Notes under the pieces: model-generated
Databases searched by the model: none
Told to the model about the DNA's origin: nothing
What the model saw: only the letters and a program-made list of their open reading frames with translations
Made by a program: the position numbers and the translations under genes
In this document: positions 32,137-39,953 of the stretch, piece after piece
Layout: each line of letters opens with the position of its first letter
Position numbering within the stretch: the first letter of the stretch is position 1
Virus record (IMG/VR): IMGVR_UViG_3300035490_000050
Coordinates: 64,001 to 128,000 of that record
DNA length: 64,000 nt
Source of the DNA: a virus
Direction: 5' to 3' (one strand)

Positions 32137-32211
32137 GCTGCTGTGGCAGAGAGCTTATGCGCTGACCCCGTAAGTCAGAATACAAGGGTTGAAATCCCTT
32201 CGGCAGCTCCA
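32137..32211 (+). tRNA. tRNA-Thr(CGT), C33 variant
   Basis: CTGAC-CCCGTAA-GTCAG arm, CCA. Confidence 0.85.
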
Positions 32212-32236
32212 GAATGTGACGAAAGCGAGTAGGACG

Positions 32237-32782
32237 ATGAACTTACTGAAAAAACCCGTACTTTTGCTCAACGCATCGTATGAGGCAATTCGCATAATTT
32301 CAGCAAAGAGATCGCTGACTCTCTTAACGAAAGGAAAAGTTGCGGTCGAACTTGCAACGGACAGGGAAGTTTATCCTGGCGTGTTTTTGCCTAGCGTTAT
32401 CCGTCTTCTTGTCTACAAGCATGTTCCCGTCAGAATGCAGCAGATGACGCGCAAAAACCTGTACTTGAGAGACGGTTACAAATGTGGCTATTGCGGTGAG
32501 CAGTTTTCTGGAAGCGAACTGACTTTGGATCACATTATCCCAAAGGCGCAAGGTGGAAAGAACACGTATGAGAACTTGATTACCTGCTGCCGCAAGGATA
32601 ACCATCGGAAAGCGGATCGGACGCCTCAACAGGCAGGAATGGTTTTGTTGAGACGGCCTATCCCGGCAACGGTTCACACTGGTAGGCACATCATGCGTTC
32701 GCTAGGATTAGAAACGCAGGGATGGGCAAAATATCTTTGGGCTGATGCTGATGGTGAGCAGAGGTTAGTGGCAAGAGGATGA
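32237..32782 (+). CDS. HNH endonuclease (McrA-like)
   Basis: VLLLNASYE..PSVIRL..RDGYKCGYCG..TLDHIIP..N..KADRTP. Confidence 0.93.
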   Translation: MNLLKKPVLLLNASYEAIRIISAKRSLTLLTKGKVAVELATDREVYPGVFLPSVIRLLVYKHVPVRMQQMTRKNLYLRDGYKCGYCGEQFSGSELTLDHIIPKAQGGKNTYENLITCCRKDNHRKADRTPQQAGMVLLRRPIPATVHTGRHIMRSLGLETQGWAKYLWADADGEQRLVARG

Positions 32783-33187: not shown

Positions 33188-33262
33188 CAACCCGTCGTTC
33201 AACGGAAAGGACGATGCGCTACGAACGCATAAATGGGGATTCGACTTCCTCCGGGTTGACCA
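33188..33262 (+). tRNA. tRNA-Arg(ACG)
   Basis: Cloverleaf, A20, CCA. Confidence 0.9.
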
Positions 33263-33355: not shown

Positions 33356-33482
33356 TTGCGTCTACTGTTGAGCGTACATGATGACTAGCTCACTCGGTAG
33401 AGCGATTCCCTTCAAAGGAATAGGTCACTGGTTCGATTCCAGTGTCATCTACTTCGGTAGATCGCTCAACGTCTTGACGCAG
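33356..33482 (+). ncRNA. Y-RNA-like tRNA mimic 1
   Basis: tRNA core (D, anticodon TCA, T arms) closed by extended stems GTTGAGCG/CGCTCAAC and TGCGTC/GACGCA; no CCA. Confidence 0.7.
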
Positions 33483-33752: not shown

Positions 33753-33873
33753 GGCGGGTTAGCAAAACGGAAAAGCTCTGCATGTCTTGACGCGCAATCG
33801 TCTATTTTGCAGGTTACATGCACATTCACTCGGAGAATGCACAATCTAGGTTCGACTCCTAGACCCGCCACCA
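33753..33873 (+). ncRNA. 121-nt expanded tRNA-like RNA
   Basis: GGCGGGT/ACCCGCC-ACCA, canonical T arm, enlarged anticodon and variable regions. Confidence 0.65.
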
Positions 33874-34082
33874 TAAGATTTACCGCATGGGAGTGCGGAA
33901 ACGAGTTTGGCTGACACTGGTTTCGTGGATACATGTTTTTGGGGATCATATCCCCACCCCCCGCCTAAGCCCTTTGGCAACGGAGGATTTAGGCGGGGGT
34001 TCTGAGGGCCGCAAGGCTGCTTAGAAAACAATTGCCCACAACCGACTTTCAGCCACTATTTTTGTGCCTTGGGAGAGGGAAT

Positions 34083-34643
34083 ATGGCCAGCGGTGATCGT
34101 TTCTACATGCTATCCTTGCGCCATCGCCCTGCGGTGTACGGCGATCTCGGAAACATCCTCAAAATCGAAGGTTTGGTGGTAGGCGGAGAAGGGGCGCATG
34201 TAATTCTTACGCTTCCCTCTTCCGATCTAAAAACTGATACCTACTGGGATGCTAATACATTCCCAGCAATTCATCAGTTATCCCTTGAGGAGTGGACCGA
34301 TTTTCTAGCGCGTACTGACGATCCAGAAATTCTAATCGGTCAAGCGAAGGCTTTCCATCGCAAATGCCGTTATGAAATTTCAGGGGCGGTACAGCAGAAG
34401 ATATGGGTAGCTGATGGTCTAAAGTGCATGTACTGCGGAGTCAGGATGGGCAGGGCACAACTCACAGTGGACCATTGGGAATCGCTTGAGGCTGGTGGAA
34501 AGAACGATAGCTCAAATTTTCTCGCAGCCTGCAAGACGTGTAATAAGGCCAAAGGTTCCATGCCGCCGCGTGACTGGTGCAGCCTTCGCAAAATTGATTA
34601 CGACTTCTTTGTGGAGTATCTGAGAACGAGGAAGTTGCCTTAA
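34083..34643 (+). CDS. HNH endonuclease
   Basis: DGLKCMYCG..LTVDH..GG..N..ACKTCNKAKG. Confidence 0.88.
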   Translation: MASGDRFYMLSLRHRPAVYGDLGNILKIEGLVVGGEGAHVILTLPSSDLKTDTYWDANTFPAIHQLSLEEWTDFLARTDDPEILIGQAKAFHRKCRYEISGAVQQKIWVADGLKCMYCGVRMGRAQLTVDHWESLEAGGKNDSSNFLAACKTCNKAKGSMPPRDWCSLRKIDYDFFVEYLRTRKLP

Positions 34644-34671: not shown

Positions 34672-36165
34672 ATGGCAGAAACAGGGCTTACACGTCAAAG
34701 AATTTTGTCGGAATTGTCGAAGAGTCCACACGGCTCTTTGAAAGAGTATCTTCCTATCGGCAAACAGGCCGTTCAACAGGAAGGTGAATTTTATCAACAC
34801 ATGCTTGCCTGGGATAGGACGCATGGGCAGATTAGGGACAGCAAGGTTGCGCTTCCTGTGATCGGCTTGGCTTTTGAGAAGGATGAGGAATTACTCGACA
34901 ACAGCCTTGCTCACATCGCTCTTTTGGGGCCGCGTGAACTGGCAAGAGCATATCGGTTTGGATTGGAGATTCGTCTCCCTGGCAAGATGCGTCAGTTGCG
35001 TAGGCTTGTCGAAGACTACCTACACCAAAAGGAGCAAGACAAAGGTTGGGATCATCTGGCAATCCAGCACAGGGGTACGCTGAAGGAACTCTACTCTCTG
35101 GCGCACGCAAAGCCTGAAAAGGAGAGAACCAACGTCGTTCTCTATGGCAGGAACTTCGACAAGACAAAGGCACCGCTGCCCAAGGGATCAGTCTTTGAGG
35201 TAGTAGCAAACCTCAAGAACATGAGTCCTACGGAGGCTGCTGGTTCGATCATGAAGTACCGGATTCCTTTCCTTATCGCCATGGGCGCGTTAGGCGCAAA
35301 GGCGAAGGAGCCGGATTTGGTACTGGCTTTGATCGGAGCCATGTCTGCAACGGAGTTGACCACGAACGTCAAGATGCTGGAGAAGTTGGGCCTGAAGACG
35401 AATCCTGCGCTGCGTGGGGCATTCGACAACGCATTGGCTAAGGCGGCTACGTCGAAGAAGAATACGCTCAAGACGACTCAGGCGGTCGAGGCCGTACAGG
35501 ACGAGGGATTGAAGGAGAAGCTCCGTGGACTACAGGCAAAGCAGATAGCGGCTGCGGGTGGTCCAGACGGCGACTGGGTAATTTTAGTTGACAAATCTGG
35601 ATCGATGCACCATGCAATCGAAACTGGTTGCCATGTTGCAGGGGCGCTCACACAGTTCGTCAAAGGAAAGGTTGGGTTGATTTTCTTCGATACCTCTCCT
35701 ATGGCGGTGGACGTAACCGGCTTGTCGCTGGACCAAATCAAGAAGGCGACACGACACTTCACAGCGAACGGTGGAACATCCATCGGCTGCGGTCTGAATC
35801 GGATGCTGGTAGAGAAAGTTGCTGTGGATGGAATTGTGATCGTGTCGGACGGTGGAGACAACACTGCTCCACTATTCCATGACGTATATCCGAAGTACGC
35901 GAAATTCTGCGATAAGGATGTGCCGGTGTATTTCTACCAACTTAGCGGAGAATCGGACAAGCTGACGCCGAACATGCAACGGGCAGGAATCGAGATGACA
36001 ACATTCGATTTGCGCGGTTCAAAGCTGGACTACTACAGCATTCCGAACACGGTCAAGACGCTTCGCAGTAACCAGTACAGTTTGGTTGAGGAAATACTCT
36101 CGACCCCGCTTTTAACCCTCAACACCGTGCTCAAGGGAGCGCAGAAAGGACTGGTGACAGTCTAA
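34672..36165 (+). CDS. TROVE/Ro60-like protein with C-terminal vWA
   Basis: About 300-aa helical N-terminus (EFYQHMLAW..IRDSK) plus VDKSGSM, GGTSIG, VSDG MIDAS; Ro60-like length; next to Y-like RNAs. Confidence 0.7.
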   Translation: MAETGLTRQRILSELSKSPHGSLKEYLPIGKQAVQQEGEFYQHMLAWDRTHGQIRDSKVALPVIGLAFEKDEELLDNSLAHIALLGPRELARAYRFGLEIRLPGKMRQLRRLVEDYLHQKEQDKGWDHLAIQHRGTLKELYSLAHAKPEKERTNVVLYGRNFDKTKAPLPKGSVFEVVANLKNMSPTEAAGSIMKYRIPFLIAMGALGAKAKEPDLVLALIGAMSATELTTNVKMLEKLGLKTNPALRGAFDNALAKAATSKKNTLKTTQAVEAVQDEGLKEKLRGLQAKQIAAAGGPDGDWVILVDKSGSMHHAIETGCHVAGALTQFVKGKVGLIFFDTSPMAVDVTGLSLDQIKKATRHFTANGGTSIGCGLNRMLVEKVAVDGIVIVSDGGDNTAPLFHDVYPKYAKFCDKDVPVYFYQLSGESDKLTPNMQRAGIEMTTFDLRGSKLDYYSIPNTVKTLRSNQYSLVEEILSTPLLTLNTVLKGAQKGLVTV

Positions 36166-36464
36166 TGAATATCAACGCACTGAAGAACTTCAACGCCGAC
36201 CGTATGGACTTGGATGACATGGTAGGCTTGCTTGCGGACTGCAAGGCACTCCGCGCTGAGTACGAGGCGCTCCAGATCGAAGAGCCTGAGTATATCGACA
36301 CAACCATCAAGGCAATTCGCCGGGAGATCACATCCCGCAACGCTGACAAGATCGCGGCTCGTAAGCGTGAGCTTGCCGCACGGATCGACAGCCTCAAGAC
36401 TCCTGCACAGAAGAAGGCAGAACTTGAGAAGGAGCTTGCCAAGTTGGAAGCCGTTCCTGTCTAA
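36165..36464 (+). CDS. Small coiled-coil protein
   Basis: TAATG coupling to the TROVE-like gene. Confidence 0.75.
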   Translation: MNINALKNFNADRMDLDDMVGLLADCKALRAEYEALQIEEPEYIDTTIKAIRREITSRNADKIAARKRELAARIDSLKTPAQKKAELEKELAKLEAVPV

Positions 36465-36485
36465 CCCATCAACCATTTGAGCGAA

Positions 36486-36515
36486 GGGGCACAGGATAAC
36501 GTGCCCCACTTTTTT
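36486..36515 (+). terminator. Terminator of TROVE operon
   Basis: GGGGCAC-8nt-GTGCCCC followed by ACTTTTTT. Confidence 0.75.
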
Positions 36516-36518
36516 CTC

Positions 36519-36547
36519 TTGCATTCCTAATCGACCTGGGGTACAGT
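36519..36547 (+). promoter_or_regulatory. Promoter of tRNA operon C
   Basis: TTGCAT-17-TACAGT. Confidence 0.65.
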
Positions 36548-36557
36548 TTCTATAGTG

Positions 36558-36638
36558 ATGAAGAGGATCATTGGTATCACCTCTTTTCTGTTCGCCCACC
36601 CCCTTCGGCTCTCCCAAGTGTCCGGGGATGTAGGCTAA
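36558..36638 (+). CDS. Upstream leader ORF C1 (MKRIIGITSFLFAHPLRLSQVSGDVG)
   Basis: Near-leaderless start; begins AAG AGG ATC ATT GGT ATC ACC; its stop overlaps the RBS of C2. Confidence 0.5.
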   Translation: MKRIIGITSFLFAHPLRLSQVSGDVG

Positions 36639-36645
36639 GGAAAAC

Positions 36646-36732
36646 ATGCAGACGACCACCAGACGCGGGACCATAACCAGAATGACCAAGCGGGTCATTT
36701 GGGGAATAGTGCGCGAGGGTTGGGACGATTAA
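36646..36732 (+). CDS. Attenuator leader peptide C2 (MQTTTRRGTITRMTKRVIWGIVREGWDD)
   Basis: TAAGGA RBS; codons 3-23 use only the eight amino acids of the downstream tRNAs. Confidence 0.85.
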   Translation: MQTTTRRGTITRMTKRVIWGIVREGWDD

Positions 36733-36756
36733 ATCTGCAAAAAGATTGAATCTACC

Positions 36757-36782
36757 AGCCCGGTCTTAGGATCGGGCTTTTT
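36757..36782 (+). terminator. Attenuator terminator C
   Basis: AGCCCGGTC-TTAG-GATCGGGCT followed by TTTT. Confidence 0.88.
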
Positions 36783-36811
36783 GATGTTTGAAAACTGAAA
36801 CGAATAATCAT

Positions 36812-36886
36812 GCCTCGTTAAGCTAGTTGGGAAACTGTCGGTCTCCAAAGCCGAACTCAGGGGTTCAAATCCTCTACGGGGTGCCA
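36812..36886 (+). tRNA. tRNA-Trp(CCA)
   Basis: Cloverleaf, G73, CCA. Confidence 0.9.
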
Positions 36887-36891
36887 TTTTT

Positions 36892-36969
36892 GCCAGTGTA
36901 GTTCAGTCGGCTTAGAACGCTGCATTCATAACGCAGAGGTCAACAGTTCAATCCTGTTCACTGGCACCA
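36892..36969 (+). tRNA. tRNA(CAT), elongator Met or Ile2
   Basis: Cloverleaf, CCA; identity cannot be settled by eye. Confidence 0.88.
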
Positions 36970-36973
36970 AGTT

Positions 36974-37071
36974 GGAGCGGCGGCGCATAATTCACTGGCG
37001 GTATCGGACAGCTAAGACTACCGAGACGTGCAGAACTCACCGAAAGGTTAGCCGTTGCAGTGGGCCGCTCC
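36974..37071 (+). ncRNA. Unknown structured RNA within tRNA operon C
   Basis: Closing stem GGAGCGGC/GCCGCTCC with internal CACTG/CAGTG and a GAAA hairpin. Confidence 0.45.
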
Positions 37072-37158
37072 GAAAGTTCACGGCTGTAAAGCCTATACCG
37101 ATGGCGCAAGGCCATCCTGCCGTGATTAAGTTTCGAGTCCTAGTGGGGGCACCATAGT

Positions 37159-37245
37159 GGAACCGTGGCCTAGTCTGGTTTTGGGCACCCGGCTCTTACC
37201 CGGCGCAGAAATGCAACGCAGGTTCAAATCCTGCCGGTTCCACCA
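37159..37245 (+). tRNA. tRNA-Lys(CTT) with long variable arm
   Basis: Cloverleaf plus GCA-GAAA-TGC V-arm. Confidence 0.88.
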
Positions 37246-37255
37246 ACACTTTTAC

Positions 37256-37341
37256 GGAGTCGTACTCGAATTGGATGCAGAGACCTGACTTTTAATCAGC
37301 GGGGTAACCCAATGGGGGTTCGAGTCCCCCCGGCTCCACCA
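37256..37341 (+). tRNA. tRNA-Lys(TTT) with long variable arm
   Basis: Cloverleaf plus GGG-GTAA-CCC V-arm. Confidence 0.88.
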
Positions 37342-37346
37342 GTTAC

Positions 37347-37423
37347 GCGGCGGTATTCCCCTCGTCTTCTAAACGAGTAAGGATAATTGGAATATGTGAG
37401 TTCGATCCTCACCCGCTGCTCCA
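37347..37423 (+). tRNA. tRNA-Arg(TCT), D-loop-relocated topology
   Basis: Intact acceptor, anticodon and T arms; 7-nt 5' linker; 18-nt post-anticodon segment. Confidence 0.8.
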
Positions 37424-37427
37424 TTTT

Positions 37428-37504
37428 GGTCCCGTACCGGCCATGTTTCCTAAACATGTAACCGTAAGTGGATGATGTCAGTTCGAGCCTGACCGGGACT
37501 TCCA
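37428..37504 (+). tRNA. tRNA-Arg(CCT), D-loop-relocated topology
   Basis: Same geometry, 77 nt. Confidence 0.8.
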
Positions 37505-37508
37505 TTTT

Positions 37509-37585
37509 GCTGCCGTACCAGCCGCGCCTCCGAAGCGCGATACTGTAACTGAATGATGCAGGTTTGAGTCCTGTCGGCAGCGCCA
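37509..37585 (+). tRNA. tRNA-Arg(CCG), D-loop-relocated topology
   Basis: Same geometry, 77 nt. Confidence 0.8.
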
Positions 37586-37590
37586 GTTTT

Positions 37591-37668
37591 GGGAACGTGG
37601 GCCAGCGGCGACGCCACCTGTCCTACAAACAGGTATTACCGGAAGTTCGAGTCTTCCCGTTCCCACCA
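37591..37668 (+). tRNA. tRNA-Val(TAC), C33 variant
   Basis: CCTGT-CCTACAA-ACAGG arm, CCA. Confidence 0.87.
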
Positions 37669-37744
37669 AGTTCGGAGTCCTACGGTTAGAAGCCGTGGGA
37701 GGTTACAACGAGCAGATGCAACACCTGCTACTCTGGGATGATTT

Positions 37745-37818
37745 GCCGATGTAGCTCAGTGATAGAGTGCCGCACTGGTATTGCGGTGACGAGGGTTTGA
37801 TTCCCTCCTTCGGCCCCA
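37745..37818 (+). tRNA. tRNA-Thr(GGT)
   Basis: Cloverleaf, CCA. Confidence 0.9.
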
Positions 37819-37819
37819 T

Positions 37820-37897
37820 GGCGGTCTAGCTCACATTGAGAAGAGCGCAGTCCTGATAAGACTGAGGCACCCAGTTCAATTCTGGGGACCGCCACCA
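37820..37897 (+). tRNA. tRNA-Ile(GAT)
   Basis: Cloverleaf, CCA. Confidence 0.92.
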
Positions 37898-37903
37898 TAG
37901 TTT

Positions 37904-37979
37904 GCGGGAGTAACTCAGCGGCTAGAGTGTCAGCCTTCCAAGCTGTTCGTCGAGGGTTCGAGTCCCTTCTCCCGCTCCA
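37904..37979 (+). tRNA. tRNA-Gly(TCC)
   Basis: Cloverleaf, U73, CCA. Confidence 0.93.
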
Positions 37980-38098
37980 TGCTTGACATCAATTCCTATG
38001 CTCTGTACTCTATTCCTAGTGCGAAGTGATCTCCATCGCCTAGCGCCCATTGACTAGCCTACTCCCATAGGCTTCTCTCCCTAAAGCGGGCCGGTCAA

Positions 38099-38458
38099 CC
38101 TTCCCGGTAAACGGCCCGCTGCTCTCACTTATCAAATCTCACTCTCGCATCAAGATATGCCTCAATAAACTTCCAACTCTTTTTCTTACAGTACACGCCT
38201 CGATTGTTCTCAACACTTATGAGTACGATACCCTCTTTCAAAACAACAAAGAACCACCAGCATCCAGAACTCCAAGCCTCAGACCTCGCCTTTTTCATTT
38301 CCTCGCTTACCGCTTCACAGTAAACCATATCCTCATCGGTAACAGGTTCATCTGAAAGCTCCTGATCGTTGTAGAGGACGAAACTCTTGCCGCTCGTCTC
38401 GGCCACGAATACGTCGCTCATGGTTTTACCCTTCCCGGTAAACGGCCCACTGCTCTCA
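38099..38458. repeat. 29-bp direct repeat (38099-38127, 38430-38458) bracketing one small ORF
   Basis: CCTTCCCGGTAAACGGCCC(G/A)CTGCTCTCA. Confidence 0.9.
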
Positions 38459-38700: not shown

Positions 38701-38985
38701 TCATTGAGCCTCCAGAAGTTTCCTGTATTTCTTTTCTTCCTCTGCGCCGTGGATTACCCGAATCGTTTTCATGCAATCCTCGTATCGACCAGGAGTTCCT
38801 TCCCATGTTTTGTCATCGTCTGCGCGTTGAACTTTCTCTTCCGATCCCTTCGGTCCAAGATCGTATTCGTCCACACAATACTTGACCGCTTCTTCTCTTG
38901 TGGCGTTGTACATAACGAAATGGTCTACGGGGTCGGAGAAAGCTGCATACTTACCGTTGGGGGTCTTGACTATCCTGTGGGCCAT
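38701..38985 (-). CDS. Hypothetical phage protein
   Basis: Coupled to the RNA ligase stop. Confidence 0.65.
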   Translation of the reverse strand: MAHRIVKTPNGKYAAFSDPVDHFVMYNATREEAVKYCVDEYDLGPKGSEEKVQRADDDKTWEGTPGRYEDCMKTIRVIHGAEEEKKYRKLLEAQ

Positions 38986-39953
38986 TACGACTTCTCCATA
39001 TAACTGTTGCCCACGAGCTTCAAGTGGACCCGTCCAAGGTGTTCATGTATGCGCTCAGGTAAAGGCCGTACTACGATTCCTTCGCGGATATGGTTTGCGC
39101 CAGGAATTAGGCTAGGACCGTCAGATAACTTTACAAGCATATTAAAGTCGAACGGACCACCAAAGACGACAGGAACTCGCTTCTCTTCGGATAAATGAGC
39201 GGTCCAGTCATCGTATTCTCTCCATTCCCCGTTATGAAGCACATCGAAAGCGCGGAAGAAAACATCGTTGGGTTTAGCTCCGTACTTGAGGCTCTGCACG
39301 TTTCCGAAGACTTCCCCATAGAGAATATCGCTAGGAAACTTACGGCAGAATTCCTCAATCCACGGATGCTTTTCTAGCGCTCTCCACCATAGATTCCCCT
39401 CGTTCTTTGCCTTCCACTCGCCACGGCTACCGCAGTACATCCGGTTCTCTTCTGGCGCATAGACGAACCTGCTATTGGCTCCGTGAATCTTCTCGGTCGC
39501 AACGACCGGCTCCCCTTCCACGAATAGACTCTTGTAGCGGTACATTGACTCTACGTCGTACTTTGGAGCGTAAAGGCCGATAGGACCACCTTCCACTTCA
39601 CCGCAGCGCTCTCCGGGGATTGGAGGCTCGTAGTGAGTTACTCCGTAGTATTCAGCAACGTCATCCCCTTCCTGTGCGCCTTCGGGCGCTGGCATAAGCA
39701 GCCCCATAGAAACTACGCCGCGCAACTTCTTGACCTTGATGCGCTCGTGCCCTACCAGAAAATCGAACTCAGGACGTGTCGAGTCCACAACAGAATCAGG
39801 TTGAATGTAAGCAGCCAATTGGCCGTCAACAAATGATCCTTTGAGGACGCAGCAAGTGAATCCGAATATACGGGCAACGTCAAGCCTTTCCGCGTTGCCG
39901 TGGGGTTCAATTTTCACTCGCACAACTTCTACCTTATGCGTCTGCTCTGCCAT
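38985..39953 (-). CDS. ATP-dependent RNA ligase (DRB0094/Rnl5-like)
   Basis: N-terminal OB-like HGNAERL..LRGVVSMGL; TEKIHGAN (motif I), LYGEVFG, FRAFDV, REGIVVR, LK. Confidence 0.9.
   Translation of the reverse strand: MAEQTHKVEVVRVKIEPHGNAERLDVARIFGFTCCVLKGSFVDGQLAAYIQPDSVVDSTRPEFDFLVGHERIKVKKLRGVVSMGLLMPAPEGAQEGDDVAEYYGVTHYEPPIPGERCGEVEGGPIGLYAPKYDVESMYRYKSLFVEGEPVVATEKIHGANSRFVYAPEENRMYCGSRGEWKAKNEGNLWWRALEKHPWIEEFCRKFPSDILYGEVFGNVQSLKYGAKPNDVFFRAFDVLHNGEWREYDDWTAHLSEEKRVPVVFGGPFDFNMLVKLSDGPSLIPGANHIREGIVVRPLPERIHEHLGRVHLKLVGNSYMEKS

Follow-up and report, generated by a model that had tools for sequence, protein, structure and literature searches.

What form can a tRNA take when its D-arm is missing from the usual place and pieces resembling it lie elsewhere in the same gene? 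The question is raised by a viral genome, IMG/VR record IMGVR_UViG_3300035490_000050, of which a window of 64,000 nucleotides (nt), bases 64001-128000 of a 136,454-base record rated complete by CheckV, was analyzed here. Inside a tRNA array at positions 37347-37585 of the window, between a tRNA-Lys(TTT) that ends at 37341 and a tRNA-Val(TAC) that starts at 37591, lie three tandem units of 77 nt, each separated from the next by 4 nt. Judging from sequence comparison, these units are in all probability working tRNA-Arg genes (UCU, CCU and CCG) whose products are not cloverleaves, the strands of the D-stem flanking the anticodon arm instead; they are referred to below as rewired. The cloverleaf has been treated as universal for cytosolic tRNAs, and the sections of the genes that depart from it, along with those that do not, are considered in turn.

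Each unit is composed, in order, of the 7-base-pair (bp) acceptor stem, a 7-nt linker, an anticodon arm of 5 bp with a 7-nt loop, an 18-nt segment, a T-arm of 5 bp and 7 nt with a TTCGA-type loop, the 3' acceptor strand, the discriminator and CCA. The anticodons TCT, CCT and CCG are each preceded by T and followed by A within the 7-nt loop. The D-arm hairpin (positions 9 to 26) is absent from all three, with only 7 nt between the acceptor and anticodon stems. The linker and the segment contain complementary triplets, namely TCC/GGA in gene 1, CGG/CCG in gene 2 and CAG/CTG in gene 3, and the helix proposed for them is present in the minimum-free-energy (MFE) fold of all three genes. Beyond the triplet, the segments read TAATTGGA (gene 1), TAAGTGGA (gene 2) and TAACTGAA (gene 3). 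An earlier, sequence-only reading of the window had described three 77-nt units with no D-arm, normal acceptor, anticodon and T arms and a CCA end, and had named the same three triplets; direct reading of the sequence shows that description to be correct. When the window was scanned, outside known tRNAs, for T-arms flanked by a 7-bp acceptor closure, only these three genes and one 121-nt RNA were returned.

A covariance model, R1, was built from the three genes with the proposed structure, and candidates drawn from public collections by fixed-spacing IUPAC patterns were filtered with this model, which places family members at 45-96 bits and ordinary tRNAs at about 30 bits or less. A strict pattern returned 5 viral contigs, all 5 of them true, and a looser one 21, of which 16 were new and 4 of those 16 true. 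Patterns of the looser type applied elsewhere gave 82 true members among 109 metagenome stretches and 3 among 20 stretches of species-representative genomes, all on contigs of metagenome-assembled genomes. When the pattern was anchored on the CGG/CCG helix and the T-loop, leaving the D-loop-like box free, 12 viral contigs were found, 7 of them new and all of these true, and a version with the spacing off by one N added 4 contigs with 78-nt members. The family thus totals 139 hits at 107 loci, with 20 viral contigs among its sources, and comprises 111 distinct sequences, 85 of which are exactly 77 nt long and the others 75-83 nt. The sequence-only reading had proposed this very check, a covariance model and a search of phage genomes, and the search returned the 111 distinct relatives. 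The remainder of the window's own genome contains no further rewired copy detectable with R1. Loci L090, L037, L050, L116, L157 and L162 present the trio in the same tandem arrangement, and a near-copy of the CCG gene, different by 1 nt, occurs in L090/L093. At L116 (405-481), a gene identical to the window CCU gene in acceptor stem, box and T-arm bears the helix CTC/GAG where the latter has CGG/CCG.

The 85 distinct members of 77 nt form a gapless alignment of 77 columns (A4). Over the whole proposed structure, 98.6% of the pairs in A4 are formed, compared to 72.2% in column shuffles (0 of 500 reach the observed value), and sliding the partners by 1-3 columns leaves only 36-47% paired. The acceptor stem is 99.0% paired, the T-arm 100% and the anticodon arm 96.9%, and the linker-segment helix (columns 11-13 with 35-37) reaches 99.2%, with double-sided changes at all three of its pairs. 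Seven types of this helix occur: CGG/CCG (67 sequences), CTC/GAG (5), CAG/CTG (4), CGG/TCG (4), TCC/GGA (2), TGG/GCA (2) and CTG/CAG (1). RNAalifold, given A4 unaided, predicts exactly the proposed structure, and the 16 highest values of mutual information with average product correction, computed across all column pairs, all belong to proposed pairs, including 12:36 and 40:49. No search pattern ever constrained the helix columns, the anticodon triplet, column 44 or column 57. On this comparative evidence, the 3-bp helix between linker and segment is real. A rough tree from the non-test columns requires a minimum of 15 switches between helix types, 4 at the 19:56 pair and 5 at 15:48, counts that are upper-leaning estimates because a tree of 67 columns is poorly resolved. 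A sub-class that includes the Streptomyces phage copies (L064 1056-1132, L110 1775-1851 and L164 2500-2576) has the TGG/GCA form, with two Watson-Crick pairs and an inner G.G, and in these genes an A at column 10 allows a helix shifted by one register instead.

Following the helix, 106 of the 111 distinct members have a D-loop-like box, T-A-R-N(1-3)-G-G-A, that resembles tRNA positions 13-21, as expected from the earlier suggestion that the segment reads as a D-loop with the Arg base A20. Four of the 5 members without the GGA box have G-A-A in its place, plus T at T-loop position 56. This bears on the tertiary pair that would join the box to the T-loop: the '19:56' combination in A4 is G:C in 80 sequences, A:U in 4 and other in 1, with A19 accompanied by U56 in 4/4 cases; the sole exception has a box one base shorter and is misaligned. 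The compensated 19:56 pair claimed for the Arg(CCG) gene is present there, and its recurrence in relatives is what the alignment adds. The pair at '15:48', which joins the nucleotide following A14 to the one that immediately precedes the T-stem, was said to be retained in all three window genes and proves to covary in relatives, with A:U in 78, G:C in 3 and G:G in 4 of the 85; the forms other than A:U came from the box-free search and from second copies in the same loci. The features of the three genes are collected in Table 1.

Table 1. Rewired tRNA-Arg genes of the window and the proposed parts of their D-arm equivalents
Feature	Position in window	Strand	Evidence
Gene 1, rewired tRNA-Arg(UCU), predicted to read AGA; 77 nt, CCA encoded	37347..37423	+	Sequence, fold, model R1 (95.9 bits)
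Gene 1, rebuilt D-stem 5' strand TCC, in linker 37354-37360	37357..37359	+	MFE pairing with GGA 37381-37383; A4 columns 11-13:35-37
Gene 1, rebuilt D-stem 3' strand GGA (37381-37383), then D-loop-like box TAATTGGAATAT (37384-37395)	37381..37395	+	Sequence; box conserved in relatives
Gene 2, rewired tRNA-Arg(CCU), predicted to read AGG; 77 nt, CCA encoded	37428..37504	+	Sequence, fold, model R1 (96.3 bits)
Gene 2, rebuilt D-stem 5' strand CGG	37438..37440	+	Pairs with CCG 37462-37464 (MFE fold, alignment A4)
Gene 2, rebuilt D-stem 3' strand CCG, then box TAAGTGGATGAT	37462..37476	+	Sequence, fold, box survey
Gene 3, rewired tRNA-Arg(CCG), predicted to read CGG; 77 nt, CCA encoded	37509..37585	+	Sequence, fold, model R1 (95.1 bits)
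Gene 3, rebuilt D-stem 5' strand CAG	37519..37521	+	Pairs with CTG 37543-37545 (MFE fold, A4)
Gene 3, rebuilt D-stem 3' strand CTG, then box TAACTGAATGAT; A at the '19' place is 37552	37543..37557	+	Sequence
Gene 3, T-loop base '56', T, partner of A19 (37552)	37565	+	Sequence; A4 column 57

The case for function is built chiefly on the anticodons. All members carry an Arg anticodon, drawn only from CCT, TCT, CCG, ACG and TCG, and the anticodon was unconstrained in every search pattern. Bacterial tRNA-Arg is recognized by A20, C35, U/G36 and A/G/U73, as given in Table 1 and the section on arginine of PMC9976931. This identity set is found in the rewired family, with C35 in 76/76 and U/G36 in 76/76 of the members checked, A20 within the GGA box of 106/111, and discriminators among the 111 distinct members of A (39), G (38), T (25) and C (9), those of the window genes being T, T and G. 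The D-loop GGA also marks the canonical tRNA-Arg genes of the same arrays (75/83, versus 79/564 for other tRNAs), so the relocated box bears the mark of arginine tRNAs. Among 86 distinct loci, canonical tRNA-Arg genes are also present in 44, and only 1 of the 64 rewired anticodons in those 44 loci also occurs on a canonical tRNA-Arg gene there, whereas permutation among loci (10,000 trials) gives a mean overlap of 19.8 and a minimum of 8. The canonical and rewired genes together make up exactly the set ACG/CCG/CCT/TCT in 17 loci. Rewired copies thus supply those Arg anticodons that the canonical copies of the same array lack, which is the strongest functional argument available, and the exclusively Arg anticodons together with this lack of overlap make it very probable that the rewired genes are working tRNA-Arg. 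The window's genome fits the pattern: its sole canonical Arg anticodon is ACG (tRNA-Arg(ACG) at 33188-33262), and AGA (309), AGG (303) and CGG (196) make up 51% of the 1588 Arg codons in the 91 open reading frames (ORFs) of at least 150 amino acids (aa). The CCA end is encoded in 78/111 distinct members and mostly tracks the habit of the neighboring tRNAs, as in L038 (34/34 neighbors and 1/1 rewired) or L048 (0/17 and 0/1), with exceptions in L044, L114, L127, L140 and L079.

Standard gene finders see little of this. In the window, ARAGORN reports 31 tRNAs in several arrays and Rfam, at gathering scores, 28 tRNA matches, with 0 from either program within 37342-37590. The tRNA model RF00005 (gathering threshold 29 bits) has no match in this interval at the gathering score nor at E values up to 10, where the single Rfam match on the trio is tRNA-Sec on the first unit, at 22.5 bits (E 0.13). 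The expectation that tRNA scanners would miss such genes therefore stood for ARAGORN and Rfam at the trio itself, but not throughout the family, since ARAGORN calls overlap 7 of the 139 family hits, which it reports as tRNA-Arg with misplaced 5' ends and lengths of 84-94 nt, and a relative is entered as 'tRNA-OTHER Nd_NNN' in one GenBank record.

In the cloverleaf, the D-stem stacks on the anticodon stem, with strand 22-25, base 26 and strand 27-31 continuous and the other strand broken between 44 and 10. The rewired RNA is proposed to retain this arrangement by another route. It would be transcribed within the phage tRNA array and trimmed as its neighbors are, its acceptor stem and T-arm being ordinary. 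The 5' strand of the rebuilt D-stem would sit within the 7-nt linker, immediately before the anticodon stem and in place of 22-25, and the 3' strand would lie 3 nt past the anticodon stem, in place of 10-13, with the D-loop to follow. Because the two strands flank the anticodon stem, the rebuilt helix would stack on it like a D-stem. The D-loop equivalents A14, R15, G18, G19, A20 and A21 would then leave the helix on its other side and run to the T-loop, where the elbow contacts G18:psi55, G19:C56, R15:N48 and U8:A14 could form, and the chain would enter the T-stem directly after the A21 and N48 equivalents. Overall, the molecule would still be a normal L, although its chain would follow another path: every helix and the tertiary pairs tested would be retained, and only three connections would change. 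The earlier reading had likewise suggested an L-shaped tRNA with swapped connectivity, and this is supported in that the helix, the box, 19:56, 15:48 and the Arg identity each held in relatives. The host arginyl-tRNA synthetase (ArgRS) would read A20, C35 and U/G36 as usual, and the tRNAs would provide for decoding of AGA, AGG and CGG, which account for half of all Arg codons in the phage. Since the acceptor/T-arm half is intact and both the identity set and the elbow are retained, RNase P would be expected to process the RNA, the host ArgRS to charge it, and EF-Tu and the ribosome to accept it.

Compared to canonical class I tRNA-Arg (RF00005; the window tRNA-Arg(ACG) and those of Tunturiibacter phage Tunturi_5), the rewired genes share the 7-bp acceptor stem, discriminator and CCA, U33, C35 and A37, the TTCGA T-loop, the D-loop content A-R-N-Y-G-G-A and a total length of 77 nt. 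The window CCU gene even has its acceptor stem in common with tRNA-Arg(CCU) of Tunturi_5 (L001), a phage with four Arg tRNAs. Unlike canonical tRNA-Arg, the equivalent of the 3' D-stem strand comes directly after base 9, and the equivalent of the 5' strand and the D-loop come after the anticodon arm, the loop leading straight into the T-stem. Two defining traits of the catalogued tRNA family are lacking, the D hairpin and a score above the Rfam threshold.

A number of observations weigh against this interpretation. The rebuilt helix has only 3 pairs, and since 67/85 members share CGG/CCG, its covariation rests on 18 sequences and on no more than some 15 events, counted on a tree of poor resolution; a G.G is found at the inner helix pair in 2/85, and the A19:U56 combination is based on 4 sequences, probably of 3 lineages. 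Constancy in the alignment is partly ascertainment, as columns 8, 9, 14, 21, 25, 38-40, 42, 43, 45, 48-50, 54-56 and 59 were fixed by at least one search pattern, including part of the T-loop as well as U33 and A37 of the anticodon loop. Folding z-scores for the three genes as single sequences are weak (-2.85, -1.10 and -1.60). When the segments of each member were put in cloverleaf order by a script, ARAGORN called tRNA-Arg in 85/85, compared to 0/85 in native order, but this test discriminates poorly, given that the program also accepts the moved block when reversed (20/85), shuffled (54/85) or replaced by a block with a different helix (85/85). The presumed steric ease of the new connections comes from reasoning on textbook tRNA geometry. 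Data on RNA are nearly silent: 2 of 3 metatranscriptomes have no contig over 37169-37865, and the 246-nt contig of X20 (depth 2.2) covers 37421-37506 and then continues into unlike sequence, which may reflect DNA carry-over and is no evidence of transcription. As for DNA, 20 of the 24 sequencing runs listed hold part of the trio stretch, mostly from peat, wetland or soil. A promoter and terminator scan of 36400-38300 performed no better than shuffles.

It might be asked whether the RNAs are charged and used in translation yet never adopt the L-shape, being floppy or Y-shaped with the GG box as a loose variable loop. Precedent for this is found in the D-armless mitochondrial tRNAs, typified by mammalian mt-tRNA-Ser(AGY), which likewise have no D hairpin and only a short connector, and in which, according to two articles, the contact between D-loop and T-loop is lost and the molecule is Y-shaped or flexible (PMC11551756, PMC7609411). 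The absence of the D hairpin and the mere 3 pairs of the rebuilt helix would agree with such a structure, as would the use in E. coli translation of an engineered tRNA without any D-arm, the 'mini HisT' described in PMC11551756. That construct, an unstable, artificial RNA that lacks a D-loop altogether, depended on a pnp mutation (PMC11551756), whereas the rewired genes are natural and keep a D-loop sequence. They differ in the same way from the organellar D-armless tRNAs, as they belong to phages of bacteria, keep their D-loop sequence elsewhere in the chain and have a canonical, covarying T-loop. A loose loop would leave unexplained why the GG box covaries with this fully canonical T-loop (A19 with U56 in 4/4), why 15:48 covaries, and why the box is conserved even in the search that left it free. 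A product without the L-shape is hence regarded as unlikely.

It is similarly improbable that the genes encode look-alikes that do not decode, whether as decoys for a host nuclease directed at tRNA-Arg, as sponges for ArgRS or modification enzymes, or as elements for processing or regulation of the array. In favor of such a role, further unusual tRNA-like RNAs and a gene for an RNA ligase are found in the window array, and both expression and charging of the rewired RNAs are predictions. A decoy, however, would be expected alongside the canonical isoacceptor, yet overlap occurs for only 1 of 64 anticodons; U33, C35 and A37 of the anticodon loop and the CCA end are all kept, and a role outside decoding would leave the window phage without a tRNA for 51% of its Arg codons.

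Re-ordering of the RNA itself presents a further alternative. In the permuted or split tRNA genes of Cyanidioschyzon merolae and Nanoarchaeum, the gene parts are re-ordered but the mature tRNA is an ordinary cloverleaf; a permuted gene has its 3' half ahead of its 5' half, and a circular intermediate restores the usual order. The rewired transcripts might similarly be cut and re-joined into cloverleaf order, perhaps by the phage RNA ligase encoded at 38985-39953, 1.4 kb downstream (Pfam RNA_ligase, E 6e-22). All covarying pairs fit the re-ordered RNA equally well, and ARAGORN accepts the re-ordered sequences as tRNA-Arg. The likeness to permuted genes lies in an order of parts that differs from the cloverleaf; the difference is that the acceptor strands of the rewired genes are in normal 5'/3' order and that an internal block has moved, for which the simplest reading keeps the new order in the mature RNA. 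By our reasoning, one circular permutation could not reverse such a move, and the RNA would have to be cut twice and precisely joined twice. No splice-like motif was seen in these genes, and we know of no pathway that undoes an internal block move in a tRNA. Re-joining is thus considered very improbable. The idea that these are decayed genes or chance look-alikes without function, which would suit their rejection by standard finders, is scarcely credible and already contradicted by the comparative data, with 111 distinct conserved relatives, compensatory changes in every helix, an Arg anticodon in all members and recurrence of the tandem trio on several other contigs.

The interpretation as working, non-cloverleaf tRNA-Arg also sets these genes apart from the viral tRNA-like structures. 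The example at the 3' end of the turnip yellow mosaic virus (TYMV) RNA genome has a pseudoknotted acceptor stem and can be charged by a host synthetase, but does not decode. The rewired RNAs would resemble it in reaching an L-shape by a non-cloverleaf chain path, and differ as stand-alone genes of 77 nt within tRNA arrays, with normal acceptor stems and Arg anticodons. A 2024 paper describes every known bacterial tRNA as a cloverleaf and restricts natural armless tRNAs to mitochondria (PMC11551756), and in a 2020 review of non-canonical tRNAs the word 'phage' occurs 0 times (PMC7609411). Full-text searches of one literature collection found no description of a tRNA with the rewired layout.

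Relatives are present in cultured phages, where they have for the most part escaped notice. A blastn search of cultured phages with the 239-nt trio stretch gave no full-length relative, only partial matches to the T-arm or acceptor, and the copies in isolates surfaced only when other family members served as queries. Pseudomonas phage vB_PaeM_Ty has an unannotated UCU copy of 83 nt, and Streptomyces phage Comrade and 13 related records have a copy, also unannotated, that adjoins tRNA-Arg(GCG). Escherichia phage heid (Felixounavirus; host K-12 MG1655) carries an 82-nt UCU copy with the helix CTC/GAG (MN850577.1, 12063-12144, minus strand), its only canonical Arg gene being ACG. With the heid copy as query, 251 phage records gave matches at E < 1e-10, and in 250 of these the match extends across 80% or more of the copy; Felixounavirus, phi92-like phages, Klebsiella phages and the jumbo phages 121Q and PBECO4 are represented. 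In 40 rows sampled across this ranking, most have no feature under the match, and the labels that do occur are 'tRNA-OTHER' (4), 'tRNA-TERM' (1), 'tRNA-Leu' (1) and a protein gene (5, of which 3 are HNH-type). The copy in the REP11 record is labelled 'tRNA-OTHER, Nd_NNN' with exact ends (R1 57 bits, UCU) and that of 121Q is called tRNA-Leu(taa) (R1 57 bits, UCU); annotation pipelines thus caught sight of a tRNA-like gene without recognizing its nature. No copy of the coliphage relative was found in complete E. coli genomes at megablast sensitivity. In heid (L165), the rewired tRNA-Arg at 2495-2576 overlaps the annotated start of an HNH endonuclease gene (2540-2938), and HNH genes also break up the tRNA arrays of the window (32189-32782 and 34032-34643). 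Such overlaps and interruptions hint that homing endonucleases may move these tRNA cassettes.

If the interpretation holds, these would be natural elongator tRNAs outside organelles that are not cloverleaves and seemingly become L-shaped by another chain path, and the translation machinery would need the shape and a few contacts rather than a given connectivity. They would also offer a natural scaffold for the engineering of orthogonal tRNAs. Counts of tRNAs in phage genomes would be too low wherever a rewired gene is present, and since most of the 40 rows sampled from 251 show the gene without annotation or under a wrong label, analyses of Arg codon supply for such phages would be wrong. The design is directly testable, as E. 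coli K-12 MG1655 and Pseudomonas aeruginosa are hosts of phages with relatives.

Why a phage should rewire a tRNA invites a more tentative suggestion, which we consider possible though rather doubtful, namely that the altered path is an adaptation. Contacts with ArgRS, EF-Tu and the ribosome would be kept while the backbone route through the core is changed, such that a host defense nuclease, or another factor, that recognizes tRNA-Arg by its D-arm would no longer bind or cut it; that nucleases may not recognize the fold had also been suggested by the sequence-only reading. Phages, including classical ones of E. coli and Salmonella, would then possess a class of defense-proof tRNAs, with tRNA-Lys bearing class II-like arms and an RNA ligase belonging to the same counter-defense kit. 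The neighborhood, with its long-armed tRNA-Lys genes, RNA ligase, VWA-domain protein and HNH genes, is suggestive only.

Directly upstream of the trio, tRNA-Lys genes with the anticodons CTT (37159-37245, 87 nt) and TTT (37256-37341, 86 nt) have a variable arm of hairpin size, which is unusual for tRNA-Lys. Long tRNAs of this Lys size also stand beside rewired Arg genes in relatives, at L002 (1055-1141) and as side hits of R1 of 86-89 nt in L157, L161 and L162. Downstream, 1 kb from the tRNA array, the ORF at 38985-39953 on the minus strand encodes a protein of 322 aa with the RNA_ligase domain mentioned above and a PHA02142 OB-fold domain, for which a function in tRNA repair is possible.

Ahead of the array, two short ORFs lie within 36558-36733, one with AGG and CGG codons and the other with AGA twice and CGG, and are followed by a terminator-like hairpin at 36757-36778. 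The sequence-only reading had held that the codons of the three tRNAs occur in the leaders of the operon and that this speaks for function; AGA, AGG and CGG are indeed present in these ORFs, but the observation is weak as an argument for function. The 189-nt spacer between tRNA-Met and tRNA-Lys (36970-37158) matches none of the RNA families and does not fold significantly (z 0.06); it encloses a 61-aa ORF (36972-37157), and contigs of three RNA libraries cover parts of 36878-37128. For the spacer at 37669-37744, a fold z-score of -2.07 was obtained, with nothing clear.

Elsewhere in the window's arrays, a 74-nt tRNA at 33379-33452 has the anticodon TCA (ARAGORN 'SeC'; Rfam tRNA, 63.4 bits) and possibly reads UGA, despite which TGA is the commonest stop of the long window ORFs (39/91). 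The 121-nt unit recovered by the acceptor scan lies at 33753-33873 and has a 7-bp acceptor closure, a T-arm and an ACCA end, with no tRNA call. It is located upstream of an HNH gene (34032-34643) and of a gene for a 497-aa VWA-domain protein (34672-36165), and the matching place is taken by a 'Ro-like RNA binding protein' in Streptomyces phage Comrade and by a vWFA protein in phage heid.

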